The notes beneath the pieces were generated by a model, which had not been told where the DNA came from, searched no databases, and saw nothing but the letters and a program-made list of their open reading frames with translations. From positions 6,093-70,092 of the forward strand of contig NZ_SCVH01000097.1 in NCBI RefSeq assembly GCF_004296935.1: a stretch of DNA of 64,000 nt. Direction: 5' to 3'. This document shows, piece by piece, positions 3,920 through 59,547 of the stretch; the stretch's first letter is position 1, and every line of letters begins with the position of its first letter. The translations under genes and the position numbers were made by a program. Origin of the DNA: Reyranella sp. Lineage in GTDB: Bacteria > Pseudomonadota > Alphaproteobacteria > Reyranellales > Reyranellaceae.

Positions 3920-5023
3920 ATGAAAATCACCGACGTCACGCTCACGCTCTTCGCCTGGGACGACATTCCGCCGACCACCTACGGTGCACACAGCCGCTTC
4001 TCCGGTTCGAGCGCCTTGGGGCTGCTGCGGATCATCACGGACGAGGGTGTCGAGGGGCATGCCTTCCTGGGCTCGGCCTCAAATTCGGCGGCGACCGACG
4101 GGCAGGGGCTCATCACCCACCTGAAGCCGATGCTGATGGGCCGCAATCCGCTTCATCGCGAAACCCTCGTCCAGGACCTGTGGAAGAAGCAGCGGGCCTG
4201 CGGCGTGCGCGCCATCGGCGCCGCCGATGTGGCGCTGTGGGATCTTTTGGGTAAATCGATGGGCCAGCCGATCCACCGGCTGCTCGGTACCTATCGCGAA
4301 TCCGTGCCGGCCTATGCGAGTTCCGCCGTGATGTCGTCGCCGACGGAATATGCCGAGGAGGCGGTGCGTTTCAAGGAGAACGGGTGGGCTGCGTACAAGA
4401 TCCATCCGCCGACGCAATGGAAGCAGGACATCAAGGTCTGCGAAGCGGTGCGCAACGCCGTGGGCGACTACACCATCATGCTCGATTCGACCTGGAGCTA
4501 CGATTATCCGGCGGCGGTGCGCGTCGGCCGTGCCGTCGAGGAGATGGATTATTACTGGTACGAGGACCCGCTCGCCGACCAGGACATCTACAACTACGTC
4601 AAGCTGAAGCAGCAGCTCTCGATTCCGATCCTCGCCACCGAGTATCCCATCACCGGCCTCGATTCCTACCAGCCCTGGCTCATGCTGCAGGCGACCGATT
4701 ACTTGCGTGGGGACGTTGCCGTCAAAGGCGGCATCACCACGCTGGTCAAGACCGCGCATCTCGCCGAGGCCTTCCGCATGAACTACGAGGTCCATCACGG
4801 CGGCAATTCTCTGAACAACATTGCCAACCTGCATGTCATCGCCTCTATGAAGAATACGTCCTTCTTCGAGGTGCTGTTGCCGGACGCGGCGCAGAAATAC
4901 GGCCTGGAGCAGGACATCGTGGTCGGCCGCGACGGCATGGTGCATGTGCCCAACGGCCCCGGCCTGGGGGCGGCCATCGACTTCAAGCTGATCGAGCGCA
5001 AGAAGGTGACCGTGCTCTCATAG
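3920..5023 (+). CDS. enolase-superfamily enzyme (mandelate racemase / muconate lactonizing enzyme family)
   Basis: N-terminal capping domain pattern MKITDV...L plus a barrel with KIH/K..., DSTW and YWYEDP metal-ligand-type segments. Start at ATG 3920 inside listed ORF 3869..5023. Confidence 0.8.
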   Translation: MKITDVTLTLFAWDDIPPTTYGAHSRFSGSSALGLLRIITDEGVEGHAFLGSASNSAATDGQGLITHLKPMLMGRNPLHRETLVQDLWKKQRACGVRAIGAADVALWDLLGKSMGQPIHRLLGTYRESVPAYASSAVMSSPTEYAEEAVRFKENGWAAYKIHPPTQWKQDIKVCEAVRNAVGDYTIMLDSTWSYDYPAAVRVGRAVEEMDYYWYEDPLADQDIYNYVKLKQQLSIPILATEYPITGLDSYQPWLMLQATDYLRGDVAVKGGITTLVKTAHLAEAFRMNYEVHHGGNSLNNIANLHVIASMKNTSFFEVLLPDAAQKYGLEQDIVVGRDGMVHVPNGPGLGAAIDFKLIERKKVTVLS

Positions 5024-5035
5024 CCGGAGAGAAGC

Positions 5036-6139
5036 ATGATCGTCGACTGCCACGCCCACATCTTCACCCACTGGATCGGTGCCTGCGGACATCCGACGCG
5101 CGAGGTCCACAAGCGCTACCTGCAGCGCGTCGTCACCCGGACGGTCGCACCGACCTTCCGACTCCGTGATGGCAAGCGCGCCGACACCAAGGCGCTGTTC
5201 CGGGCCGGCGACGAGGGATGGACCGGTCTCGCCGACGTCGATTTCCGCGTCGGCCGGTTCGGCCAGCTCGAGTTCACCCATGAGGGCGAGGATTACGGTG
5301 TCCAGTACATGCCCGTGGGCATGCAGGAGCAGGTGGCGCCGCCCGAGCTGATGCTGGCCCAGATGATGAACGCCGGCGTCGACCACTGCATCCTGCAGGC
5401 GGGCGGCGGCTACGGGGCGATGACCGAGATGAATGCCTTTGCAGGCCAGCAGTATCCCGGACGGATGACCGGGCTGATGCATGTCGACGAGGCGATGGCG
5501 GGCACGCCGGCCGAACTCGCCAAGGTCGACCGTGCGGTCGACGAGCTCGGCCTGCGCGGCCTCTACTTCGGCGTCGATGCAATGAGCCGCCACGGCTTCC
5601 CCTGGCCGCTCGATGCCGAGGAGATGGCGCCGTTCTGGGACAAGCTCGCGCGGCGGGGCATCCTGCTCTGCTTCGAGATCAGCTCCGGCCCGACCTACGA
5701 TGTGGCGGGTTACATGGCGAACCTCACGGCGTTCGGCCGCGTGCTCGCGCGCCACCCGTCGCTCCGCGTGCACATGGCGATGAGCCCGCCGGTCGCCTTC
5801 TTCGCCCGGAACGGCCGCTACCAGTTCCCCGACGAGGCGCTCGCCGTCTGGCGCCACGAGCCGATGGTGCTCGAGGTGATGTTCCCGATCACTTATGGCG
5901 GCGTCTGGGACTATCCCTACCCCGAGGCGCAAACGCTGATCGAGGACATGAAGAACCAGCTGGGCGCACACCGGCTGATGTGGGGTTCCGACATGCCGAA
6001 CGTGGAACGGTTCTGCACTTATAAGCAGTCGCTCGACTATGTGAGGCGGTACTGCCCGTTCCTGACCGCACGCGACAAGGATCTCATCCTTGGTGAGACC
6101 TGCGCGGCCTTTTACGGGATCTGCAGGCCGGGCGCCTGA
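5036..6139 (+). CDS. amidohydrolase-2 family metal-dependent hydrolase/decarboxylase
   Basis: N-terminal DCHAH metal-binding motif (MIVDCHAHIF) and a C-terminal WGSDMP motif typical of the amidohydrolase_2 (LigI/ACMSD-like) family. Confidence 0.75.
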   Translation: MIVDCHAHIFTHWIGACGHPTREVHKRYLQRVVTRTVAPTFRLRDGKRADTKALFRAGDEGWTGLADVDFRVGRFGQLEFTHEGEDYGVQYMPVGMQEQVAPPELMLAQMMNAGVDHCILQAGGGYGAMTEMNAFAGQQYPGRMTGLMHVDEAMAGTPAELAKVDRAVDELGLRGLYFGVDAMSRHGFPWPLDAEEMAPFWDKLARRGILLCFEISSGPTYDVAGYMANLTAFGRVLARHPSLRVHMAMSPPVAFFARNGRYQFPDEALAVWRHEPMVLEVMFPITYGGVWDYPYPEAQTLIEDMKNQLGAHRLMWGSDMPNVERFCTYKQSLDYVRRYCPFLTARDKDLILGETCAAFYGICRPGA

Positions 6140-6148
6140 CTCGGCGGA

Positions 6149-7018
6149 TCAGACGACGGTGCGGTGGCGCTCGATGCAGGTCGCCAGCACCGTGTCGATC
6201 GGCTGGCCCCACCAACGCTCAGAGAAGATTTCTGCCTCGGAAAAGCCGTTGAAGCCCGCATCCTCGACGGCCTGGCGGATGCGACGGAGTTCGATCACGC
6301 CGTCGCCCATCATGCCGCGGTCGTTCAAGAGATCGGTGGTCGGCACCAGCCAGTCGCAGACGTGATAGGCGAGCAGCCGCTGCTCGCGGCCGGCGCGGGT
6401 GATGCCGGCATAGAGATCCGGATCCCACCACGTGTGATAGACGTCGACGGCGACGCCCAGCGCGCCGCTGCGGCCGCCGGGATCGAGGCGGTCGGCGATG
6501 TCGAGCGCCTGTGCGAGCGTGTTCACCGCGGCGCGGTCGGCGGCGTACATCGGATGCAGCGGCTCGATCGCCAGCGGCAGCTTGGCCGTGCGGGCATAGG
6601 CCAGCAGCTCGGCGATGCCGTCCTCGATCATCGCGCGCGCCATTTCGAGGTCCTTCGACGGCGCGGAGCCGGGGCGCGCATATTGCGGCAGGCCGCCAGC
6701 CACCAGGATGAGGCAGGGCGCGCTCATCGCCGCGGCCTCGTCGACCGCGCGCCGGTTGTCGTCGCGCGCCGCGCCGCGATGCTCGCCGGAAGCGGGGAAC
6801 AAGCCACCGCGGCAATAGCCGGAAAGTTTCAGGCCGGCGTCCTTGACCAGGCGAATGGCGCGGTCGAGTCCCACACTCGCCACCTGGTCGCGCCACGGGC
6901 TGATCGCCGGGATGCCGTGGCGGGCACAGGCCTCGACGATGGCCAAAAGATCACCCTGGCGCCGGACGGTCGCGGTGTTGACCGAGAGATGGCGCGGGCC
7001 GTCGCTGAAATCGCGCAT
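6149..7018 (-). CDS. sugar phosphate isomerase/epimerase (xylose-isomerase-like TIM barrel)
   Basis: 289 aa. Typical AP-endonuclease-2/xylose-isomerase-like barrel segments (LAIEPLHP, YHVCDW). Confidence 0.8.
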   Translation of the reverse strand: MRDFSDGPRHLSVNTATVRRQGDLLAIVEACARHGIPAISPWRDQVASVGLDRAIRLVKDAGLKLSGYCRGGLFPASGEHRGAARDDNRRAVDEAAAMSAPCLILVAGGLPQYARPGSAPSKDLEMARAMIEDGIAELLAYARTAKLPLAIEPLHPMYAADRAAVNTLAQALDIADRLDPGGRSGALGVAVDVYHTWWDPDLYAGITRAGREQRLLAYHVCDWLVPTTDLLNDRGMMGDGVIELRRIRQAVEDAGFNGFSEAEIFSERWWGQPIDTVLATCIERHRTVV

Positions 7019-20857: not shown

Positions 20858-21373
20858 GTGAGGTCCAACGTGCGCAAACCGACAATTGCGGCGAAACCCC
20901 GGCCGGATCCTGAAGCATCGGCCGTGGGCCAGTGTCTTTGCGGCGCGGTGGAAATCGAGATCGGGACTCCGGCGCGATGGGCTTGGCACGATCATTCCAG
21001 CGCGACGCGGCGGGCGCACGGTGCCGCCTATGCGACCTATGTCGGCAGCTGGCGCAAGCGCTTTCGCGTCACCAGAGGGGCGGACGAGATCACGCGCTTT
21101 GCCGACGAGACCACCGGGACGACGAGAAGCTTTTGCGCCCGCTGCGGCACGCCGCTCGCCTATGAGCGCGCCCGGTCGGCGCACATGGTCAATGTTCCGC
21201 GCGCGCTGTTCACGACCCGCACGGGCCGGGAGCCGCGCTACCACATTGCGATCGACCAGCTGCAGGACTGGACATATCTCGGCGAACCGCTGGTTCCCCT
21301 GAAAGGCTTTCCCGGGGTTGTGTGGGAACGGCCGAACCGGAAAAAGCGCGGTCCATTGCCCAAATATCGCTAA
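20858..21373 (+). CDS. GFA family protein (glutathione-dependent formaldehyde-activating enzyme / CENP-V fold)
   Basis: Zinc-cysteine pattern CLCGAVE ... FCARCGTPL is typical of the GFA family. Confidence 0.75.
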   Translation: MRSNVRKPTIAAKPRPDPEASAVGQCLCGAVEIEIGTPARWAWHDHSSATRRAHGAAYATYVGSWRKRFRVTRGADEITRFADETTGTTRSFCARCGTPLAYERARSAHMVNVPRALFTTRTGREPRYHIAIDQLQDWTYLGEPLVPLKGFPGVVWERPNRKKRGPLPKYR

Positions 21374-21380
21374 CACGGAT

Positions 21381-21409
21381 TTGCAGGTTCAGCAGGTTTG
21401 GCGTATATT
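21381..21409 (+). promoter_or_regulatory. sigma70-type promoter of module A (TTGCAG-17 nt-TATATT)
   Basis: Near-consensus hexamers with 17-nt spacing. The same arrangement is conserved in copy B. Confidence 0.55.
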
Positions 21410-21416
21410 TTCAGGT

Positions 21417-21480
21417 AGATTGGCGATGTTTCGCCAGCACTGCCAGCACCGCCCGAAGGCTTCGCCTCCGGGCGTTTTTT
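21417..21480 (+). ncRNA. candidate small RNA (about 64 nt) ending in an intrinsic terminator
   Basis: Predicted start about 7 nt after the -10 hexamer. Internal hairpin TGGCGA-tgtt-TCGCCA. Terminator stem CGCCCG...CGGGCG with inner stem AGGC/GCCT, followed by TTTTTT (21475-21480). Confidence 0.45.
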
Positions 21481-21664
21481 ATGGTCCACGAATGGTCCAT
21501 TTTCTGTAACCGCCGGGGGACACCGATGACGACGGGCAGTCATCGCCGGTGGCACAGTTCGTCGGGGCGAGATTGCTCTTTTAGACCATACCGTTGATTG
21601 CGGTTTTTGGCACAGGCAGCGGCACACCGCGTGGCACAACGAGGTGTGCCACGAAATGGTCCAC

Positions 21665-22156
21665 TCAGGGTTCGTCCCGGACCTTCCGGTTGAGCAGGCT
21701 GCCCAACACCAGGCCGAGGACGAGGTCGTCCTCGGCGCCGAAGGTCAGGTGCACAATGCGCCCCGCGCGGTCGATGACGACGGTCGAGGGCGTCCCCTTG
21801 AAGCCGTAGGCAGCCATCGTGAGCGGAACGGGACCGTCCGGTGAGGGGCGGTCGACGGCGACCGGCATTTTCAGGCCATACTCGTGCAGGAAGGCTTCCA
21901 GTGAGACTGGCGTCATGGCCGCGTGATGCTCGAAGACGGTGTGGAGGCCCAGCACCACGAGATCGTCGAGACCCTTGGCGATCTCGTGCAGGCGCCGCGC
22001 CTGTGGGACGGCATGGGCGACGCAGCCGGGACAAAGCATCTGGAAGGCATGCAGCACCACGACCTTGCCGCGAAACATGTCGAGCGCCAGCGGCCTGTCG
22101 GTGTTGAACCAGCGCTCGGCCTCGATCGGCGGTGCCGGAATCGGTGCTTCGTTCAT
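21665..22156 (-). CDS. TlpA/redoxin-like thioredoxin-fold protein
   Basis: CPGC redox motif inside FRGKVVVLHAFQMLCPGCV. 163 aa with a thioredoxin-fold length and pattern. Confidence 0.75.
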   Translation of the reverse strand: MNEAPIPAPPIEAERWFNTDRPLALDMFRGKVVVLHAFQMLCPGCVAHAVPQARRLHEIAKGLDDLVVLGLHTVFEHHAAMTPVSLEAFLHEYGLKMPVAVDRPSPDGPVPLTMAAYGFKGTPSTVVIDRAGRIVHLTFGAEDDLVLGLVLGSLLNRKVRDEP

Positions 22157-47971: not shown

Positions 47972-48817
47972 ATGCGCGTAGGTGTCTTCTACTTCCCGAC
48001 CGACTACGGCATCGACATCGCCGAACTCGCGCGTGCCCTCGAGGAGCGTGGCTTCGACTCGCTGTTCGTGCCCGAGCACACGCACATCCCCCTCAGCCGC
48101 AAGACACCCTTTCCAACGGGCGGCGAACTGCCCAAGCGCTATTCGCACACCCACGATCCGTTTGTCGGCCTCGCCTTCGCGGCGGCGGCAACCAGGAAGC
48201 TCAAGATCGGCACCGGCATCCTGTTGGTGCCCCAGCACGAGCCGATTGCCACGGCCAAGGCCATCGCCTCGCTCGACCAGCTCTCGGGCGGCCGCTTTGT
48301 CTTCGGCATCGGGGCTGGCTGGAACCAGGACGAGATGGAGAACCACGGCGTCGGCTACGCCACGCGCTACAAGCAGATGCGCGAACATGTGCTGGCGATG
48401 AAAGCGCTGTGGACCGAGGAGGCGGGGTCCTTCCACGGCGAGTTCGTGAACTTCGATCCGGCATGGTCGTGGCCCAAGCCCGCGCAGCGGCCGCATCCGC
48501 CGATCCTGCTGGGTGGAGAAACCGACCATACGCTGAAGCGCGTCGTCGACTATTGCGACGGCTGGTTCCCGCGCCCGCGCTCCGGCTTCGAGGCATCCAC
48601 CGCCGTCGATCGTTTGAAGCGTATGGCGGAGTCGGTGAAGCGCGATCCCGCGACACTCACGGTCACCGTATTCGGCGCACCGCCGGAAGCTGCTGCCCTG
48701 GCTGCTTACGAAAAAGCCGGGATTCCAAACGCCCTGTTGGCGATCCCCGACCTCGGCCGTGACGAGATCCTGCGCCATCTCGATACGATCGCGCCGCTGG
48801 CGAAAGCCCACGCATGA
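47972..48817 (+). CDS. LLM-class oxidoreductase, probably F420-dependent (Rv2161c-like)
   Basis: ERGFDSLFVPEHTHIP, SLDQLSGGRFVFGIGAGWNQDEMENHG and PHPPILLGG segments. Starts 9 nt after gnd. Paralogue of 49756..50607. Confidence 0.75.
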   Translation: MRVGVFYFPTDYGIDIAELARALEERGFDSLFVPEHTHIPLSRKTPFPTGGELPKRYSHTHDPFVGLAFAAAATRKLKIGTGILLVPQHEPIATAKAIASLDQLSGGRFVFGIGAGWNQDEMENHGVGYATRYKQMREHVLAMKALWTEEAGSFHGEFVNFDPAWSWPKPAQRPHPPILLGGETDHTLKRVVDYCDGWFPRPRSGFEASTAVDRLKRMAESVKRDPATLTVTVFGAPPEAAALAAYEKAGIPNALLAIPDLGRDEILRHLDTIAPLAKAHA

Positions 48818-49755: not shown

Positions 49756-50607
49756 ATGCACATCGGCGCGGCGATGTTCTTCACGGACTATTCCATGGCG
49801 CCCGGCGAACTCGGCAAGGCCCTGGAGGAGCGCGGCTTCGACTCGCTGTGGGCGCCCGAACATTCGCACATCCCGATGTCACGCAAGTCGCCCTTTCCGA
49901 GCGGCGGTGAGCTGCCGAAGAAATACTACGATGCGATGGACCCGTTCGTGACGCTGACCGCCGCGGCCGTCGCCACCAAGACCCTGAAGGTCGGCACCGG
50001 CATCTGCCTGATCGCCCAGCGCGATCCCATCCAGACGTCCAAGCAGGTCTCATCGATCGACCAGCTCTCCGGCGGGCGCTTCCTGTTCGGCGTCGGCAAT
50101 GGCTGGAACAGCGACGAGATGGAAAACCACGGCACCGTCTACAAGACCCGCCACAAGCTGGCGCGCGAGCGCATCGAGGCGATGAAGGAGATCTGGACCA
50201 AGTCCAAGGCCGAGTATCACGGCGAGCTGGTCAACTTCGATCCGATGATGAGCTGGCCCAAGCCGGTGCAGAAGCCCCATCCGCCGATCATCGTCGGTGG
50301 CGCCTTTCCCTATGGCGCGCGTCGGGCGCTGCGCTACGGCGACGGCTGGATGCCGCACCGCGTGCGCAAGACCTACGCCGACGTGAGTGCGCTGATCCCC
50401 AAGTTTCGCGAGATGGCCAAGGAAGCCGATCGCGACCCCGCTTCGGTGCCCGTCACCATCTGGGGCGCCAAGGAGGACGAGAGCCTGCTGAAGCGCGACC
50501 GCGACGACGGCGTAGAACGCATCATCGTCAGCCTCGATTCGGCCAAGGCCGACAAGATCCTTCCCGAACTCGACCGCTGGGCCAAGCTCCTGCGCGCGGT
50601 CGCCTAG
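49756..50607 (+). CDS. LLM-class oxidoreductase, probably F420-dependent (Rv2161c-like)
   Basis: Aligns by eye along its full length with 47972..48817 (ERGFDSLWAPEHSHIP, SIDQLSGGRFLFGVGNGWNSDEMENHG, PHPPIIVGG). Confidence 0.75.
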   Translation: MHIGAAMFFTDYSMAPGELGKALEERGFDSLWAPEHSHIPMSRKSPFPSGGELPKKYYDAMDPFVTLTAAAVATKTLKVGTGICLIAQRDPIQTSKQVSSIDQLSGGRFLFGVGNGWNSDEMENHGTVYKTRHKLARERIEAMKEIWTKSKAEYHGELVNFDPMMSWPKPVQKPHPPIIVGGAFPYGARRALRYGDGWMPHRVRKTYADVSALIPKFREMAKEADRDPASVPVTIWGAKEDESLLKRDRDDGVERIIVSLDSAKADKILPELDRWAKLLRAVA

Positions 50608-51557
50608 AGGAGCGGCAGCACCTCTTTCTTGAACTGCTGCATTTCGCCCAGCATCGCCTCGACGGTCGCGCCGCCAAAGCCGAAGTCGAGGCTGCCGACG
50701 CCCATGTCGCGGAGCGCCCGCATGTCGGCCGCGATCTCGGCCGGCTTGCCCGAGAACAGGCGCCGCTCGCCGTCACCGGCCTTGGGCGGGACCTTTTCGC
50801 CCAGTGCCGTGCAGCGGAAGGCAAGCCCCATGGCCTTGGGATCGCGCCCGGCCTCGGCCGTCATCTTGTGCAGGCGCGCGACCTGGGTCTTGAAGCGCGC
50901 CAGGCTGTCGAGCGGGTTGGCCGGGTTGGTGCCGATCGGATACCAGGCATCGCCGAGGCGCGCGGTGCGACGCAGCGCCGGCCCGCTTTCGCCGCCGACC
51001 CAGATCGGCGGATGGGGCTTCTGCACCGGCTTGTGCGAGAAGTCGATATTGTCGAAGGAGACATACTCGCCGGCAAAGCGCGGTCTCTCCTTGGTCCAGA
51101 GCTCGATGAAGGCCTTGATGTATTCGTCGGTGACCTTGCCGCGCTGGGTGAAATCGGGCGCGCCGATCGCCTCAAATTCCTCTTTTAGCCAGCCGACGCC
51201 GATGCCCACCGTCAGGCGGCCGCCCGACAGCACGTCGATAGTCGACAGCATCTTGGCGGTCAGGACCGCTGGGCGATGCGGCACCACCATCACCGAGGTC
51301 ACCAGCCTGAGGCGCGTCGTCTTGGCGGCGAGGAAGGCCACTTCGATCAGCTGCTCGTGGCGCTCGACGCGGGAACCGGCGGGGAATTCACCAGTTGCGC
51401 TGTAGGGATATTTTGCCTGGATATCGACCGGGATCACCACATGGTCGCTGAAGGTGGCGTAATCGAAGCCCAGCGCCTCGCCGGCTACCACCAGTCGCGT
51501 CAGGTGCTCGGGTGCCGCCAACAGCCCGGCGGTCGGCGCATTGAAGCCGATCAGCAT
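50604..51557 (-). CDS. LLM-class oxidoreductase, probably F420-dependent
   Basis: GFDYATFSDH, LSGGRLTVGIGVGWLKEEFEAIG and PHPPIWVGGES segments. Stop codon shares the CTAG tetranucleotide with the convergent gene. Confidence 0.75.
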   Translation of the reverse strand: MLIGFNAPTAGLLAAPEHLTRLVVAGEALGFDYATFSDHVVIPVDIQAKYPYSATGEFPAGSRVERHEQLIEVAFLAAKTTRLRLVTSVMVVPHRPAVLTAKMLSTIDVLSGGRLTVGIGVGWLKEEFEAIGAPDFTQRGKVTDEYIKAFIELWTKERPRFAGEYVSFDNIDFSHKPVQKPHPPIWVGGESGPALRRTARLGDAWYPIGTNPANPLDSLARFKTQVARLHKMTAEAGRDPKAMGLAFRCTALGEKVPPKAGDGERRLFSGKPAEIAADMRALRDMGVGSLDFGFGGATVEAMLGEMQQFKKEVLPLL

Positions 51558-51623: not shown

Positions 51624-53969
51624 TTGCTCATGATGACGACGGGCGTTTCGTTGGCCGCATTGATGGCCGAGGCGGGCGAGCTGCGCGATCGCGGCCATGG
51701 CCGCTTGATTTCGTATTCGCGCAAGGTGTTCATTCCGCTCACCCACCTCTGCCGCGACGTCTGCCACTACTGCACCTTCGCTGAGCGGCCGCGCGCCGGT
51801 CAGCCGGCCTACCTCTCGCCCGACCAGGTTCTCGCCATCGCCCGCGCCGGCGCGGCCGCGGGCTGCACCGAGGCGCTGTTCACCCTGGGCGACAAGCCGG
51901 AGCTGCGCTACAGCGCGGCACGCGAGGCGCTGGCGGCGCTTGGTCACGAGACCACGATCGGCTACCTGACGGAAATGTGCGGCCGGGTGCTGCGCGAGAC
52001 CGGGTTGCTGCCGCATGCCAATCCCGGAGTCATGACGCGCGAGGAGATCGCGGGCCTGCGCGCGGTGACGGCGAGCCAGGGCATCATGCTCGAATCGACC
52101 AGCGAGCGGCTCTGCGAAAAAGGCGGCGTGCATTACGGCTCGCCCGACAAGCATCCGGCGGTACGGCTGGAGACCATCCGACTCGCGGGCGAACTGAAGG
52201 TGCCGTTCACCACCGGCATCCTGATCGGCATCGGCGAGACGCGCGACGAGCGTATGGAAGCGCTGACTGCCATTCGCGACCTGCATGCCGCGCACGGCCA
52301 CATCCAGGAAGTGATCGTCCAGAATTTCCGCGCCAAGCCCGACACCAAGTGGGCCGACGCCGACGAGCCCGATCTCCAGGACCTGCTGTGGACCATCGCC
52401 ATGGCCCGCAAGATTCTCGGGCCCGACATGAACCTCCAGGCGCCGCCCAATCTGTCGCCGGGCGTCTATCCGCGCCTGATTGCGGCGGGGCTGAACGACT
52501 GGGGCGGCATCTCGCCGGTGACGCCCGACCATGTGAACCCCGAAGCGCCGTGGCCTGCCATCGATGAACTGGCGCGGCGCAGCGCCGAACTGGGCAAGGT
52601 GTTGGTCAACCGCCTGCCGCTCTATCCCGCCTATGCCCGTGACCCCGACACCTGGCTTGCGCCCGAAGTCGCGACGCAGGTCCGGCGTATGAGCGACGCC
52701 GAGGGCCTCGCTCGCGACGACGACTGGTCGCCCGGCGAGACCACGCCGCCGCCCGCGCCGCGCGTCCTCGTGAGCGGCGTCGATTCCGCGATCGCTCGCG
52801 CCGTCGACCGCGCGACGTCGGGCGAGCGCCTCGATCCGCCGGAGATCGTGCGCTTGTTCGCGGCCCGCGACGCCGACTATCGCCACGTCACGGGCGCCGC
52901 CAATGCGCTGCGTCAGGCGGTCAGCGGCGAGGTCATACGCTACGTCGTCAACCGCAACATCAACTACACCAACATCTGTTATTTCCGCTGCAAGTTCTGC
53001 GCCTTCTCCAAGGGTCGCACGCACGAGGACCTGCGTGGCGCGCCCTACGATCTGGCGCTCGACGAAGTGAAGCGGCGCGCCGTAGAAGCCTGGGAGCGTG
53101 GCGCCACCGAAGTCTGCATGCAGGGCGGCATCCATCCCGACTATACGGGCGAGACCTATGTCGCGATCTGCAAGGCGATCAAGGAAGCGGTGCCGGGCAT
53201 GCACATCCACGCCTTCTCGGCGCTGGAAGTGACCCAGGGTGCGGCGACGCTGAAACAGCCCATTCCTGAATTCCTCGCCAGCCTGCAGCAGGCCGGCCTC
53301 GGCACCCTGCCGGGCACGGCGGCGGAAATCCTCGACGACGAGGTCCGCGCCATCATCTGCCCGGACAAGATCAACACCGCCGAGTGGCTGGGCGTGCAGC
53401 GCGCCGCGCACGGGCTCGGACTGCGCACGACTTCGACCATCATGTACGGCCACGTCGAGACGCCGCTTTCCTGGACGCGGCATCTGCTGGCGCTGCGCGA
53501 TTTGCAGAGCGAGACCGGCGGCTTCACCGAATTCGTGCCGCTGCCGTTCGTGCACATGGAAGCGCCGATGTACCGGCAGGGCCGCGCCCGCCGCGGGCCG
53601 ACCTTCCGCGAGGCGGTGATCATGCATTCCGTCGCGCGCCTGGCGCTGCACCCGGTGATCCCCAACATCCAGACCTCGTGGGTCAAGATGGGCCCGGCCG
53701 GTGCCGCGATCTGCCTGGAGGCGGGCGCCAACGATCTCGGCGGCACCCTGATGAACGAGAGCATCTCGCGCGCGGCCGGCACGCAGCATGGCCAGGAATT
53801 CCCGCCCGACGCCATGGAGGCGCTGATCCGCTCGATCGGCCGCACCCCGCAGCAGCGCGACACGCTCTATCGCACTGTCCCGGAGGAGCGCCGCGCGGCG
53901 TCGCTGGTCGCCGCCGACCTCGCGCCGCTCGTGCTTACGCCGCCCCGCAAGCGGGCCGCCGCGGCTTAG
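51624..53969 (+). CDS. fbiC: bifunctional FO synthase (7,8-didemethyl-8-hydroxy-5-deazariboflavin synthase, CofG+CofH fusion)
   Basis: 781 aa with two radical-SAM CxxxCxxC motifs (CRDVCHYCTF and CYFRCKFCAF), one in each half, as in FbiC. Confidence 0.92.
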   Translation: MLMMTTGVSLAALMAEAGELRDRGHGRLISYSRKVFIPLTHLCRDVCHYCTFAERPRAGQPAYLSPDQVLAIARAGAAAGCTEALFTLGDKPELRYSAAREALAALGHETTIGYLTEMCGRVLRETGLLPHANPGVMTREEIAGLRAVTASQGIMLESTSERLCEKGGVHYGSPDKHPAVRLETIRLAGELKVPFTTGILIGIGETRDERMEALTAIRDLHAAHGHIQEVIVQNFRAKPDTKWADADEPDLQDLLWTIAMARKILGPDMNLQAPPNLSPGVYPRLIAAGLNDWGGISPVTPDHVNPEAPWPAIDELARRSAELGKVLVNRLPLYPAYARDPDTWLAPEVATQVRRMSDAEGLARDDDWSPGETTPPPAPRVLVSGVDSAIARAVDRATSGERLDPPEIVRLFAARDADYRHVTGAANALRQAVSGEVIRYVVNRNINYTNICYFRCKFCAFSKGRTHEDLRGAPYDLALDEVKRRAVEAWERGATEVCMQGGIHPDYTGETYVAICKAIKEAVPGMHIHAFSALEVTQGAATLKQPIPEFLASLQQAGLGTLPGTAAEILDDEVRAIICPDKINTAEWLGVQRAAHGLGLRTTSTIMYGHVETPLSWTRHLLALRDLQSETGGFTEFVPLPFVHMEAPMYRQGRARRGPTFREAVIMHSVARLALHPVIPNIQTSWVKMGPAGAAICLEAGANDLGGTLMNESISRAAGTQHGQEFPPDAMEALIRSIGRTPQQRDTLYRTVPEERRAASLVAADLAPLVLTPPRKRAAAA

Positions 53970-53979
53970 GCCATTCGAA

Positions 53980-54008
53980 TTTGCAAGTTCAGCCGGTTTC
54001 GGCTATGT
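53980..54008 (+). promoter_or_regulatory. sigma70-type promoter of module B (TTGCAA-17 nt-TATGTT)
   Basis: Hexamers and 17-nt spacing are conserved with copy A. Confidence 0.5.
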
Positions 54009-54014
54009 TTTTCG

Positions 54015-54078
54015 CTATATTGGGCGCGCTGCGAGCCTGATGATCGAACGCCCGACGGATCCTTCCGCCGGGCGTTTT
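54015..54078 (+). ncRNA. candidate small RNA (about 64 nt) ending in an intrinsic terminator
   Basis: Terminator CGCCCG...CGGGCG with inner stem CGG/CCG, followed by TTTTT (54074-54078). Same predicted length as copy A, but the body sequence is diverged. Confidence 0.4.
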
Positions 54079-54277
54079 TCGTGGTCCACAAATGGTCCAC
54101 TTCGGCGATCTTTTTCAGACATTCATCCCGGCAAGCGGCGGGTGCCGGTGGCACAGTTTATCGGGGGGCGATTGCCCTGCGGGACCAAGGCCTTGAGGCT
54201 GGTTCATGGCACAGGTCGATGGACACGTCGTGGCACAACGAGGTGTGCCAGAAAATGGCCATTCCCGCCGTGCGCGC

Positions 54278-54964
54278 CTAGCCGATTCCCCGGTCCACCA
54301 GCAGTCGGGGGATGCCGGCCTCTTCGAGGAAGGCCCGCGTGCGGGTGCCGGCCGACTGCGGCAGGCGGAGGAAGGCGGCGAGGTCGGCGGGGTGGTCGAT
54401 GTCCATGGCAATACCCGGCTGGCGGATCACCGTCGGCTCGATGCCCGCGCGCCGCGCCGCCTCGAGATGCGGGAAGTAGCTGTTCTCGCCGAAACGCAGC
54501 GGCACGGCATCCGGTGGCGAGCAGATGACGGCGTTGGAGCCGAGATCGTCATGCGCCGGCGAGATGGTGAAGGAGGGAGCGCGAAGATGCGACGCCAGCA
54601 CCGCGTCGATCTCGGCCGAAGTAGCGGCGGGAATGTCGCCGGGAAGCGTGATCATGCCGCCGCGACCTTCGCGGGCGAGCAGGCGGAGGCCTGCCGTGAC
54701 GCTGCCGGTGTGGCCGTCGCGGGCGCCGTCGGTCACCACGCGCGCGCCGAGGCGCGAGGCCAGCGCCGTCGTCTGCGGGTCGAGGGTGACGACCATGATG
54801 CCGGCGAGGCCGCGCGCGCCGGCCACGGCGTCCAGTACCTCGCCCACCATGACTTCGATTAGCGCGCGGCGCTGGGCGGGTGAGAGCAGGGGGGCGAGCC
54901 GCTGCTTGGCGCCATCCAGTTCCTTGACGGGCACGACCGCCCAGATGTCGGCCGACGCGCTCAC
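54278..54964 (-). CDS. cofC: 2-phospho-L-lactate / phosphoenolpyruvate guanylyltransferase (F420 biosynthesis)
   Basis: IWAVVPVKELDGAKQRL N-terminus and MITLPGDIP motif of CofC/FbiD. GTG start at 54964 overlaps the cofD stop (GTGA). It is the last gene of the fgd-cofE-cofD-cofC operon. Confidence 0.85.
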   Translation of the reverse strand: MSASADIWAVVPVKELDGAKQRLAPLLSPAQRRALIEVMVGEVLDAVAGARGLAGIMVVTLDPQTTALASRLGARVVTDGARDGHTGSVTAGLRLLAREGRGGMITLPGDIPAATSAEIDAVLASHLRAPSFTISPAHDDLGSNAVICSPPDAVPLRFGENSYFPHLEAARRAGIEPTVIRQPGIAMDIDHPADLAAFLRLPQSAGTRTRAFLEEAGIPRLLVDRGIG

Positions 54965-55893: not shown

Positions 55894-56663
55894 CGAAACA
55901 TGTCCTCGGCGGCCGGCCGCACGAGTTCGGAGGCGGGATTGGCGGGCGCGCTCCAGGTAAGGCCGCGCATCAGCACGACGGGCTGCGCTTCGTTGCCTTG
56001 CCCCATTACGAGGGACGCCGCGGCCGCGATCTCGTCGGCGAAGCCGGTGATGCTGACCTGCAGTTCACGGCCGAACAGATCGGGATTGCCGCGCAGGTCG
56101 AGGAGCGCCGGCAGGCCCGCCGCGCCGATCGCCACACCGGCCGTGCCGCGCCGCCACGCCCGGCCGAAGCTGTCGGTGATGACGACCGCAAGCGGCACGC
56201 CGCAAAGCGAGGTGAGGCGGGCGCGCAGTTTGGCGGCGCTGCCGTCGGGATCGACCGGCAGCAGCAGCGCGCGCTGCGGGCCGTCCGGCGAAGCGACATT
56301 GGATTGATCGACGCCGGCATTGGCCATGACGAAACCAAGCTTGTGCTCGACGATCAGGACATTGGGCCGGGACCGCACCACGCGGACCGACTCCGACAGG
56401 ATCAGCTCGACCAGGCGCGGATCCTTCTGCACTTCCTTGGCGAGCTCAACGGCCCGCGCCGATGGCTTCACCGTGGCGAGATCGACGCTGCGGCCTTCGG
56501 CCTTGGAGACGACTTTCTGGGCGATCACGATTACGTCGCCCTTGCGTGGCGCAAGGTTGCCGCGCGCGAATCCTTCGGCGATCAGGGCCGCCAGATCGTC
56601 ACCCGGCGCGATCAGGGGGATGCCGGGGACCGCCAGGATCTCCAAGGCGGTGGTGCGGCTCAT
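55890..56663 (-). CDS. cofE: coenzyme F420-0:L-glutamate ligase, single-domain form
   Basis: 257 aa. [26 protein letters not shown] and [11 protein letters not shown] motifs of CofE. No C-terminal nitroreductase-like domain. Confidence 0.9.
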
Positions 56664-57664
56664 CCGAACTTCTTGCGTAGACGCGGCAGCACCTGCTCGC
56701 CGTAGAGCTTCAGGAACCGCTCCTGATCGGGGCCCGGCGCGTGGAAAACGAGATGACGGAAGCCGAGAGTGACGTAGGCGCCGATCTTTTCGACATGCTC
56801 GTCGGGGTCGCTCGACACGATCCAGCGCGACGCCGTGCGCTCGAGCGGCAGCGCGTCGGCCAGACGCTGCATCTCGACGGGATCCTCGACCGACATCTTC
56901 TCGTCGCCCGTCAGTGCCAGCGCCGCCCAGTGCCGTGTATCCTGCAGCGCGCGCTCGGCGTCGGTGTCGAAGGAGACCTTGACCTCGATCATGTGGTCAT
57001 ACGGCTGTACGCGCGGTTCGGCAGCGGCGAGACCCTCGGCGACCTTGGGCAACAATGTTTCGGTATAGAGTTCGCGCTTCTTGCCGCTGGTGCAGATGAA
57101 GCCGTCGCCGGAGCGACCGGCGTAGCGCGCTACCAGCGCGCCGGCCGCCGCCACGTAGATCGGCACCTCGACCTCGGGCCGGTCGTAGATGGTGGCCTTT
57201 TCGGTCTTGTAGTATTCGCCCTCGAAGCTGATGCGTTCCCCGCGCCACAGCGTGCGGATCAGGGTCACCGCCTCGCGCATCCGGGCGAAGCGTTCCTTGA
57301 ACTCGGGCCAGGGCTGGCCGGTCGACGGCACTTCGTTCAGCGATTCGCCGGTGCCGATGCCCAGGACGACCCGTCCCGGGAACATCGCGCCCAGCGTGCC
57401 GAAGGCCTGTGCCACGATAGAAGGATGGTAACGGAAGGTGGGCGTGAGCACGCTGGTGCCGATCACGATCCGCGAGGTCCGGGCACCCAGCGCACCGAGC
57501 CAGGCGAGCGAGTAGGGCGCGTGGCCATCGACGTGCTTCCACGGCTGGAAGTGATCGCTGACGAACACCGATTCGAAACCCACGTTTTCCGCCAGGCAGG
57601 CGAAATCGAGCAGTTTTGCCGGCGCGAATTGTTCCGCCGATGCCTTGTATCCGAGCTTTATCAT
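56660..57664 (-). CDS. fgd: F420-dependent glucose-6-phosphate dehydrogenase
   Basis: [13 protein letters not shown]...[20 protein letters not shown]...[20 protein letters not shown]...[11 protein letters not shown] closely follows the mycobacterial Fgd1 sequence as I remember it. Confidence 0.88.
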
Positions 57665-58669: not shown

Positions 58670-59547
58670 TGAAATTCGCCCTGCATTTCGGCAACAACAC
58701 TTGTCCGGACCTGGCCGCGGCGCACCGGCTGGTGCGCCTGGCAGAAGCCGCCGGTTTCGATTCGGTCTTCGCCGTGGATCATGTCGTCCTGCCCGACACC
58801 TACAGCTCGACCTACCCCTATGCGGCCAGCGGCCGCCTGCCGGGCGATCGCACGGCATCGATTCCCGATCCATTGATCTGGATGGCATCGGTCGCGGCCG
58901 TCACGACCCGGCTGCGCTTCATGACCGGCGTGCTCATCCTGCCGCAGCGCAATCCGCTGGTCCTGGCCAAGCAGGTCGCGACGCTCGACCATTTGAGCGG
59001 CGGGCGCATCGAACTCGGCATCGGCGTCGGCTGGCTGAAGGAGGAATTCGAGGCGCTCGGCGTGCCGTTCGAGAAGCGCGGCAAGCGGGCCGACGAATAT
59101 ATCGCGGCGATGCGGGCACTGTGGGCGGCCGATGGCGCGAGCTACGCCGGCGAGTTCGTGAAGTTCCATGAGGTGAGTTGCAACCCCAAGCCGGTGGCGG
59201 GCAGCGTGCCGATCATCGTCGGCGGCCATTCCGAGGCCGCCGCCCGGCGGGCCGGCCGTCTCGGCAACGGCTTCTTCCCATCGATCGGCCGGCCAGTCGA
59301 CACCATGCCTCTGATCGATGTCGCCCGTCGCGCTGCGGAGGCAGCGGGCCGCGATCCCGCGGCGATCGAGATGCTTGCCGGCTGTCCCGATCTCCTGCCC
59401 GGCTCGGGCAAGGATGCGGAGGCGGCCATCAAGGAACGGGTGGCGCAGGGCATCGGCCGCATCGTGCTGCCTTCCACCCCTTTCATGCACGATCTCGAGG
59501 AGAGCCTCGCGCGCTTCGGTGAAAAGGTCATCCGCCCCTTCAGCTAG
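58666..59547 (+). CDS. LLM-class oxidoreductase, probably F420-dependent
   Basis: GFDSVFAVDH, LSGGRIELGIGVGWLKEEFEALG and SVPIIVGGHSE segments. Start is GTG 58666 or ATG 58669, overlapping the upstream stop. Confidence 0.75.
   Translation: MMKFALHFGNNTCPDLAAAHRLVRLAEAAGFDSVFAVDHVVLPDTYSSTYPYAASGRLPGDRTASIPDPLIWMASVAAVTTRLRFMTGVLILPQRNPLVLAKQVATLDHLSGGRIELGIGVGWLKEEFEALGVPFEKRGKRADEYIAAMRALWAADGASYAGEFVKFHEVSCNPKPVAGSVPIIVGGHSEAAARRAGRLGNGFFPSIGRPVDTMPLIDVARRAAEAAGRDPAAIEMLAGCPDLLPGSGKDAEAAIKERVAQGIGRIVLPSTPFMHDLEESLARFGEKVIRPFS

Follow-up and report, generated by a model that had tools for sequence, protein, structure and literature searches.

A promoter-terminator repeat element with a fixed-spacing box array, derived from a cassette encoding a small-terminase homolog, fills an fbiC/cofC gap in Reyranella

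The F420 biosynthesis genes in the stretch of Reyranella DNA analysed here (the window, 64 kb in length; G+C of 66.7%) include fbiC and cofC, which converge tail to tail, and by Pfam assignment cofC is followed on the minus strand by cofD, cofE and a luciferase-like (fgd-type) gene. The gap between the two genes is filled by a sequence lacking an open reading frame (ORF), of which a second copy lies between another pair of convergent genes in the window. We sought to determine what this unit is, and whether its position at the tail of cofC reflects a role in F420 biology, as an original prediction made from the sequence alone had suggested.

An nhmmer search of the window recovered exactly two copies of the unit, A and B (E = 1e-90), each about 290 nt long (Table 1). 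As the original prediction had stated, both copies sit in tail-to-tail gaps between convergent genes, and copy B fills the 308-bp gap that runs from the end of fbiC at 53969 to the cofC stop codon beginning at 54278. The predicted distance of 13-27 nt between the array and the stop codon of the minus-strand gene was likewise recovered, with the inverted TGTGCCA box ending 27 nt (copy B) and 13 nt (copy A) before it. The predicted anatomy was a promoter, a terminator and a heptamer array, and the family alignment described below backs the promoter and terminator. Copies A and B share a mean column identity of 79%, which is patchy rather than uniform: the conserved blocks are the promoter-like block, the hairpin with its T run, the TGGTCCAC boxes, the TGGCACA boxes and a closing TGGCACA-N6-TGTGCCA palindrome. 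The two units together hold 6 of the 8 plus-strand TGGCACA heptamers of the whole 64 kb, along with 2 of the 5 TGTGCCA and 4 of the 4 TGGTCCAC occurrences.

Table 1. Positions of the two repeat copies, their parts and their neighbouring genes in the window.
Feature	Position	Strand	Basis or detail
fbiC, left neighbour of copy B	51624-53969	+	Pfam Radical_SAM + CofH_C
cofC, right convergent neighbour of copy B	54278-54964	-	CofC family; stop codon 54278-54280
fbiC/cofC gap	53970-54277		308 nt
Copy B, ORF-less repeat element filling the fbiC/cofC gap	53970-54265 (parts listed 53978-54262)	+	nhmmer, alignment
Copy B promoter-like unit	53981-54009	+	-35 TTGCAA 53981-53986; 17-nt spacer; -10 TATGTT 54004-54009
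Copy B spacer repeats, GCAGGTT-like	GCAAGTT 53983-53989; GCCGGTT 53993-53999	+	
Copy B second -10-like box, TATATT then GGG	54016-54024	+	Family statistics
Copy B intrinsic terminator (predicted)	54049-54079	+	CGCCCGACGG / CCGCCGGGCG hairpin 54049-54074; T5 54075-54079
Copy B TGGTCCAC boxes, two, 11 nt apart	54082-54089; 54093-54100	+	
Copy B remnant of the lost TerS-like ORF 3' end, CAGACATTCATCCCGGCAAG	54116-54135	+	Homologous to ...AAATCCCATGACGCCGGGTAG of ORF-bearing copies
Copy B heptamer array	54149-54262	+	Information profile over 57 copies
Copy B array boxes	TGGCACA 54149; GGGGGGCGAT 54163-54172; palindrome ACCAAGGCCTTGA 54184-54196	+	
Copy B array boxes, continued	TGGCACA 54207; TGGACAC 54220; TGGCACA 54231	+	
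Copy B array end	Inverted TGTGCCA 54244-54250; TGGCCAT 54256-54262	+	
GFA-family gene, left neighbour of copy A		+	Stop codon 21371-21373
Redoxin/AhpC-TSA gene, right neighbour of copy A		-	Stop codon 21665-21667
Copy A, element filling the GFA-family / redoxin/AhpC-TSA gap	21373-21665	+	nhmmer, alignment
Copy A promoter (predicted)	-35 21381-21386; -10 21404-21409	+	Scanner: TTTGCA-18-TATATT
Copy A terminator (predicted)	21450-21480	+	
Copy A boxes	TGGTCCA(C) 21482, 21493, 21657; TGGCACA 21550, 21608, 21632; TGTGCCA 21645	+	

Copy B is a member of a previously undescribed repeat family specific to Reyranella. The pattern TGGCACA-N(14-20)-TGGCACA-N(4-8)-TGTGCCA, scanned against a single genome for each species and followed by confirmation of the hits with nhmmer, returned at least 51 true copies at unrelated loci in 12 Reyranella-type assemblies. 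Among the matches listed, all confirmed copies were of Reyranella type, some of the assemblies bearing other labels. The elements are intergenic and ORF-less with a length of about 255-330 bp, single genome bins (MAGs) hold up to at least 10 of them, and a search of the PLSDB plasmid collection gave zero matches.

The promoter block ranks among the most conserved blocks of the family. The -35 hexamer reads TTGCA(G/A) in 34 of 41 copies, and either this or TTGACA in 37 of 41; the spacer of 17-18 nt carries a tandem GCAGGTT repeat, and the -10 hexamer is TAnnnT in nearly all of the 41. Hexamers of the sigma-70 type at a spacing of 17 +/- 1 nt are thus kept across copies. All 41 scored copies also have, 5-6 nt downstream of the first -10, a second box of the form NAnnnT-GG(G), which may represent a sigma-dependent pause or the true -10. 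Further on, a GC-rich hairpin followed by T4-6 was present in every one of the 36 copies where a pattern search could place it. Of the 11 pairs in its consensus, 4 show compensatory double changes, and with a tract of T5-6 the predicted strength is about -20 to -30 kcal/mol; hairpin, U tract and compensatory changes are those of a rho-independent terminator, as predicted from sequence. Of these features in the window, a simple promoter/terminator scanner reported the copy A promoter alone; the loops or stems of the two terminators do not fit its rules, so neither was called. In a second subfamily the promoter reads TTGACA-N17-TATATT and the short hairpin is a different one, and therefore the promoter-then-terminator design is itself conserved, beyond its sequence. 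The number of TGGTCCAC boxes behind the terminator varies by copy, with extra units at the orthologous site in L081 and four boxes in L029. In L125, a 0.5-kb insert inside the promoter end of the element codes for a small protein whose GIY-YIG match falls below threshold. We also considered a sigma-54 promoter reading of TGGCAC and rejected it, as TTGC is absent at the required 5-nt distance on both strands.

A promoter and a terminator conserved in every subfamily, including the one with TTGACA-N17-TATATT, together with a leader hairpin of variable sequence in many copies, could indicate a family of small-RNA genes, each giving a terminated transcript of 40-70 nt that acts in trans or as a cis-antisense RNA, with the downstream array as its regulatory region. 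We regard this as very unlikely. The window gave zero hits to Rfam 15 at gathering thresholds, and the best sub-threshold hits fell far below theirs (isrO, 23 versus 42 bits; ar14, 22 versus 59 bits). Moreover, the segment that would be transcribed is the least conserved one and in many copies holds little beyond the terminator hairpin, one would not expect regulatory sites to lie behind a terminator, and the strongest conservation falls in DNA that would not be transcribed.

Part of that conservation lies in the 3' array. Aligned across 28 diverse copies, the array spans 150 nt with zero indels and near-invariant boxes. RNAalifold detected zero covariation in these 28 copies and returned the invariant palindrome as the sole structure, on which grounds a structured-RNA reading of the array was rejected. 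Since 150 nt are kept without an indel and without covariation, the array looks like a fixed-phasing site in DNA, a platform for protein binding. An IHF-like box is present in imperfect form in both window copies.

Longer members of the family have a protein gene beside the array. This long form measures about 735 nt and has, between the same 5' and 3' parts that make up the short copies, an ORF of 159-162 aa; the ORF is intact in L031, L066, L110, L075 and L096 and decayed in L039 and L045, and an ORF-bearing copy is absent from the 64-kb window. The ORF encodes a homolog of phage small terminases (TerS). The cassette protein matched Pfam PF20901 (Sf6_terminase) at 29.9 bits (cutoff of 27) and PHROG 4044, annotated as 'terminase small subunit', at 1e-18, and a profile of 35 homologs had Sf6 gp1 as its sole match in the PDB (E = 0.002). 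An AF2 model (pLDDT of 89) shows an N-terminal HTH and a helical oligomerisation core. Foldseek matches of this model in BFVD were phage small terminases (E = 1e-7), including those of the alphaproteobacterial phages PhiJL001 and RDJL Phi 2; its top fold matches in the PDB were all small terminases as well, at a weak E of about 0.1. Transposase HTH families matched the protein weakly (E = 0.03-0.13). Close relatives of the TerS-like protein were found in Reyranella only, and clustering at 50% identity leaves the clade with one representative within a superfamily of 9438 representatives (E <= 1e-10). The gene is under purifying selection (dN/dS of 0.18-0.41).

The short copies are internal-deletion derivatives of the TerS-like cassette. 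They retain remnants of the start of the ORF and of its last codons, and copy B has such a 3' remnant between its terminator and its array (Table 1). At one orthologous locus, L110 carries the ORF and L089 an in-frame internal deletion that keeps the original stop codon, and other, independent stages of decay are seen in L027, L002, L045 and L039. A protein-coding reading of the short copies themselves was rejected: their middle regions measure 84, 85, 86, 97, 108 and 109 nt, lengths that vary by non-multiples of 3, and the frame differs between copies. From several MAGs rich in short copies no ORF-bearing copy was recovered among the matches listed, these MAGs being incomplete.

To place copy B in its local context, we compared cofC loci. 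A metagenome scan with CofC yielded 80 related loci (73-93% amino-acid identity), and the unit was present in 4 of them (L119, L120, L121 and L125), which belong to the closest clade. In the 6.2 kb surrounding copy B, an ortholog from the genome scan (locus L081, of a Reyranella MAG) matches the window at 85.7% identity, and it has the unit at the same junction. In most other cofC loci, the ends of fbiC and cofC lie a few to about 15 nt apart or overlap, with overlapping stop codons in, for example, L135 (GGCCTAGGCG), and some unit-free loci hold unrelated long palindromes or another downstream gene. L120 and L125 have an element of the type of copy B; in these two and in L081, the orthologs of copy B stand at the same cofC tail with the right junction conserved. 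The array end of copy B lies 15-27 nt from the cofC stop codon. In L119 and L121 the element is present and a different gene follows cofC, and this same neighbour occurs without the element in L116-118, L124 and L126, which constitutes a presence/absence polymorphism. Mostly empty orthologous junctions and this polymorphism together identify the unit as a lineage-specific insertion, acquired at the cofC tail in one sub-lineage and standing outside the conserved layout of the F420 genes.

The suggested link to F420 biosynthesis is therefore not borne out, as most of the 80 cofC loci do without the unit and elsewhere it lies between unrelated gene pairs. The very situation that the original prediction had named as speaking against its proposal, orthologous junctions without the module, is the prevailing one, with the genes at these junctions intact. 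We nonetheless weighed a locus-specific regulator that would control the fgd-cofE-cofD-cofC operon, and the redoxin gene at copy A, by read-through antisense RNA or transcription collision. Such a role would suit a promoter aimed at the 3' end of cofC with a terminator in between, and the right junction with cofC shared by L081, L120 and L125. It would also suit the promoter-terminator design, which implies read-through as a regulated step because the ORF of the long copies lies behind the terminator. Yet the majority of orthologous cofC loci manage without the unit, the element adjoins many unrelated genes, the terminator is strong and conserved, and an F420-related motif is absent; we judge this reading very unlikely indeed, and the least probable of those considered here. 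Antisense transcription into cofC would be possible only if that terminator were overridden. Among the roles listed in the original prediction, a protein-bound element fits best, because the array has a fixed spacing and zero covariation and full-length relatives encode an adjoining DNA-binding protein, whereas F420-linked control is unsupported.

Placement follows a common rule across the family. For this analysis, copies were oriented by their promoter and flanking genes were called by a crude GC3-based method; because the caller missed several neighbours, including cofC, the flank statistics are lower bounds, and several apparent exceptions in placement are misses of the gene caller. In at least 35 of ~50 copies, the array end falls about -6 to +35 nt from the stop of a convergent gene, and in about 80% it is estimated to fall within about 35 nt of one. 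Between the end of the left neighbour and the element there are usually 0-25 nt, so that most copies fill convergent gaps exactly. The left gene is divergent in 13 copies, including most of the ORF-bearing ones, and even there the array mostly points at the tail of a gene. Where both flanks were available for a pair of element-bearing loci, 12 pairs shared both flanks, 23 the array-side flank only and 1 the promoter-side flank only, and therefore synteny breaks at the promoter end.

Such placement bears on whether the element is purely selfish: a non-autonomous mobile element, similar to a MITE or a mobile insertion cassette, moved in trans by some recombinase and without a host function. Its promoter, terminator and arrays would then be cis sites for mobility or leftovers, and the TerS-like gene a passenger or an accessory DNA-binding factor. 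Convergent gaps are a typical location of tolerated insertions, and the clustering of synteny breaks at one end (23 versus 1 pairs) would fit mobility, as would the multiple copies in long and short forms and the presence/absence polymorphism among close relatives. Like a MITE, the element is short, non-coding and multi-copy as well as polymorphic in this way; it fails to resemble one in its ends, in its targets and in its coding relative. It lacks inverted repeats at its termini: its left end (AATTTGCAGGTTCAGCAGG) is related in neither orientation to its right end (TGTGCCA-AAAA-TGGTCCAC), and inverted repeats occur in it only as internal hairpins. A 9-nt direct repeat flanks the insertion in L119 and L121, but across 51 copies direct repeats in the flanks are no commoner than in shuffled pairings (mean of the longest, 4.31 versus 4.33 nt; repeats of >=8 nt, 3 cases versus about 5), which gives no sign of a target-site duplication. 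A transposase or recombinase gene was absent in or beside the ORF-bearing copies, leaving the family without a transposase-coding autonomous relative.

Divergence between copies also bears on this question. Copy B is closer in sequence to its orthologs than are the four-fold synonymous sites of fbiC, cofC, cofD and cofE (L081, 0.866 versus 0.720; L120, 0.892 versus 0.774; L125, 0.925 versus 0.725), unlike what neutral relics would show, and boxes with their exact spacing are kept in old copies. Judged by these sequence comparisons, the promoter, terminator and array boxes are shown to be under selective constraint, though the high identity at the B locus could in part reflect recent replacement rather than selection. 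In other orthologous pairs, the element mostly evolves faster than its coding flanks as a whole, and its identity still looks higher than the level expected of four-fold sites. Very different variants can occupy the same orthologous site, as a selfish element would allow: between L052 and L059 the element is 0.75 identical and the flanks 0.92, and between two types of cofC tail the values are 0.67-0.70 and 0.84-0.87. At such sites, an element far more divergent than its flanks indicates turnover or replacement rather than simple conservation in place. Copies within one genome are only 70-80% identical, which excludes a recent burst. Taken with the missing hallmarks of transposition, the slow change at the B locus, the kept spacing of old copies and the lack of a recent burst leave a purely selfish element, in our estimate, somewhat unlikely.

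The element shares features with several known systems. The first comparison is with bacterial intergenic repeats that lie at the 3' ends of genes, such as enterobacterial REP/BIME sequences, the Correia elements of Neisseria, other MITEs and mobile insertion cassettes; like them, it is a short non-coding sequence present in many copies and concentrated in gaps between convergent genes. A possible IHF-type site, an outward promoter, hairpins, coexisting long and short forms and insertion polymorphism also recall REP/BIME, Correia elements and MITEs. In contrast to these families, the Reyranella element has neither terminal inverted repeats nor a consistent target duplication, its coding form specifies a TerS-like HTH protein rather than a transposase or a RAYT, and it is asymmetric, with the promoter-terminator unit at one end and the fixed-spacing array at the other. 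The location rule is similar to that of REP/BIME with RAYT, but the element is not made of REP-like palindromes.

Phage packaging modules offer a second set of comparisons. The TerS homology, in sequence and in predicted fold, and the phased boxes beside the gene recall phage TerS and pac (Sf6 gp1, SPP1/SF6 G1P, P22 gp3); in SPP1-type and P22-type phages, the pac site is a phased repeat array beside terS. Unlike phage homologs, which adjoin TerL, the Reyranella gene is an orphan without TerL or portal, and its cassette is only 735 bp, is repeated round the chromosome and has lost the gene from most copies. Lambdoid late operons are controlled by pR'-tR' units with Q antitermination, and the Reyranella element is alike in having a promoter, a -10-like box immediately after it and a strong terminator before the first gene, here the terS homolog. 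The likeness is architectural only, as neither an antiterminator gene nor sequence similarity to known units was found. The TerS of SaPIs packages chromosomal pseudo-pac sites, and SaPI/PICI TerS provides a parallel for a stand-alone TerS encoded outside a phage with candidate cognate sites in the chromosome. PICIs, however, are islands of at least several kb that also encode an integrase as well as replication and regulatory functions, whereas Reyranella has the TerS-like gene and its flanks only, in many copies.

These parallels raise the possibility that the copies are dispersed pac-like sites for the initiation of packaging, to which the TerS-like protein would bring the large terminase of a phage or of a gene transfer agent (GTA), so that segments of the chromosome would be transferred at high frequency or phage packaging would be interfered with. 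The cassette protein is a true TerS homolog, its counterpart on phage contig L199 lies directly upstream of TerL, which is followed by portal, and a phased array beside terS is what a pac site would resemble. Against this, TerL, portal and capsid genes were absent near all ORF-bearing loci and near any other copy, the TerS-like gene lying among ordinary genes, and the protein, at 160 aa, is without the longer C-terminal part that its phage relatives (170-290 aa) have. Nor did nhmmer find the element in IMG/VR viral contigs; scanning these for the array pattern and for the promoter block turned up chance matches in low-GC phages and nothing else. Literature searches on a terminase-linked repeat element, on Reyranella repeats and on Reyranella gene transfer agents returned nothing relevant. 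On balance we hold pac-like sites to be unlikely. We place the same low credence in a fuller scenario, in which induction would lead to antitermination at the element promoter, the TerS-like protein would load on dozens of arrays, and a phage or GTA motor would be engaged, ending in headful packaging of host DNA that starts at many set positions or in sabotage of phage packaging as a form of defence.

The reading that we favour, and to which we give about even credence, is that copy B couples a promoter-terminator unit to a cis-acting array bound by the TerS-like protein. The cassette of ~735 bp from which it derives has three parts: a sigma-70-type promoter with the double GCAGGTT repeat, the second -10-like box and a strong intrinsic terminator 40-70 nt on; the 159-162-aa orphan TerS-like HTH gene; and the 150-bp fixed-spacing array of TGGCACA/GGACAC boxes with the ATCAAnnnnTTG palindrome and the TGGCACA-N6-TGTGCCA end. 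We propose that TerS-like oligomers assemble on this array, the protein being supplied in trans by the few ORF-bearing copies and perhaps assisted by a bending protein, much as a pac-type site adjoins its terS gene. The promoter would yield only a short terminated RNA unless termination were overridden. In full-length copies the ORF lies behind the terminator and its expression therefore needs read-through, and the promoter-terminator unit would gate expression of the TerS-like gene. Locally, the first intrinsic terminator downstream of fbiC is the one predicted inside copy B, and the element likely supplies fbiC with its sole intrinsic terminator and likely forms a protein-bound, terminator-containing spacer between two converging operons.

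For F420 biology, the outcome is negative: the unit at the cofC tail is a lineage-specific insertion rather than a conserved control element. For genome biology, it introduces a repeat family partnered with a small-terminase-like DNA-binding protein instead of a transposase, and in its non-coding copies the promoter, the terminator and a box array of exact spacing have been retained. If the TerS-like protein binds these arrays, the family would offer a rare example of a module for phage packaging recognition co-opted by, or parasitising, a bacterial chromosome, with possible consequences from transcription insulation to directed DNA packaging. A terminase-linked repeat family of this kind is open to test in cultured Reyranella, such as R. 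massiliensis.

Pairwise comparison of flanks among the element-bearing loci from our genome and metagenome scans (L002-L125) showed a concentration of synteny breaks at the end of the Reyranella element where its promoter and terminator lie (the promoter side). Only the flank on the side of the 3' heptamer array was common to 23 locus pairs, only the promoter-side flank to 1, and both flanks to 12. A hot spot for insertion could account for this clustering, as could a site of recombination.

Two orthologs of the fbiC/cofC locus that hosts copy B carried additional DNA. In the metagenome ortholog L125, an insert of ~500 nt with lower GC (3987-4489), bordered by repeated AAATTTGC, was located within the promoter-side end of the element, and the 117-aa protein that it encodes gave a sub-threshold GIY-YIG match (21.9 bits vs a cutoff of 22.6). 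In L120, fbiC and the element were separated by 2.2 kb (4008-6215) containing a 594-aa adenylate/guanylate-cyclase and TPR gene; the array-side junction with cofC was the same.

A second subfamily of the element (L082, L079, L077, L059, L062 and L004) had a near-consensus promoter, TTGACA-N17-TATATT, and a terminator with a different short hairpin (GGCTGGCGC...GCGCCGGCC followed by a T run), while its 3' array was unchanged from that of the main family. The TGGTCCAC box was present in 2-4 units depending on the copy, and this count varied even among orthologous copies. Since a GCCAGCACTGCCAGCA-like motif lies in the leader of copy A and also immediately beyond the promoter-side end of several other copies, in the left flanks of L063, L047, L030, L022 and L090, the left limit of the element may extend 15-20 nt beyond the conserved core.

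Positions of repeats, motifs and ORFs in the window
Feature	Position	Remarks
Diverged direct repeats (three)	48155-48418, 49939-50202, 58867-59130	60-73% identity; in genes around the F420 cluster
Luciferase-like ORFs	49756-50607, 50604-51557, 56660-57664	
TGGTCCAC box	54082-54100, 21482-21499	11-nt tandem repeat directly 3' of terminator; also in loci L081, L029, L120
GCCAGCACTGCCAGCA-like motif	21431-21447	in leader of copy A

The luciferase-like character of all three ORFs suggests that paralogous F420-dependent oxidoreductases form a local group here.

The heptamer pattern also matched unrelated repeats outside Reyranella. In Bryobacterales MAGs (L007, L032, L042 and L069) the matches formed inverted pairs ~280 nt apart at several loci, a paired repeat that looks like a MITE, and in several Rheinheimera species (L003, L044, L065, L071, L072 and L113) the pattern was matched once per genome. 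With nhmmer, neither set of matches showed any relation to the Reyranella element.

Empty cofC/fbiC junctions of more distant taxa (L127, L131, L130 and L139) contained unrelated long GC-rich palindromes of 50-110 nt, which could act as terminators in both directions or belong to other families of repeats. Where a different gene follows cofC, a sigma-54-like motif, TGGCATGCATTTTGCT, was conserved ahead of that gene both in loci without the element (L116-L118, L124 and L126) and in the element-bearing L119 and L121; in the latter two, the insertion point adjoined this motif, at a distance of ~15 nt from where cofC stops.

At the cofC tail, the element variants of the copy B type and of L119/L121 were very different, whereas their flanks were far more alike, and the same held for L052 and L059, which share one orthologous site (element identity 0.67-0.75 vs 0.84-0.93 for flanks across both comparisons). 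Such divergent variants at one orthologous site suggest that elements have been replaced, or inserted repeatedly at the same gene tail.
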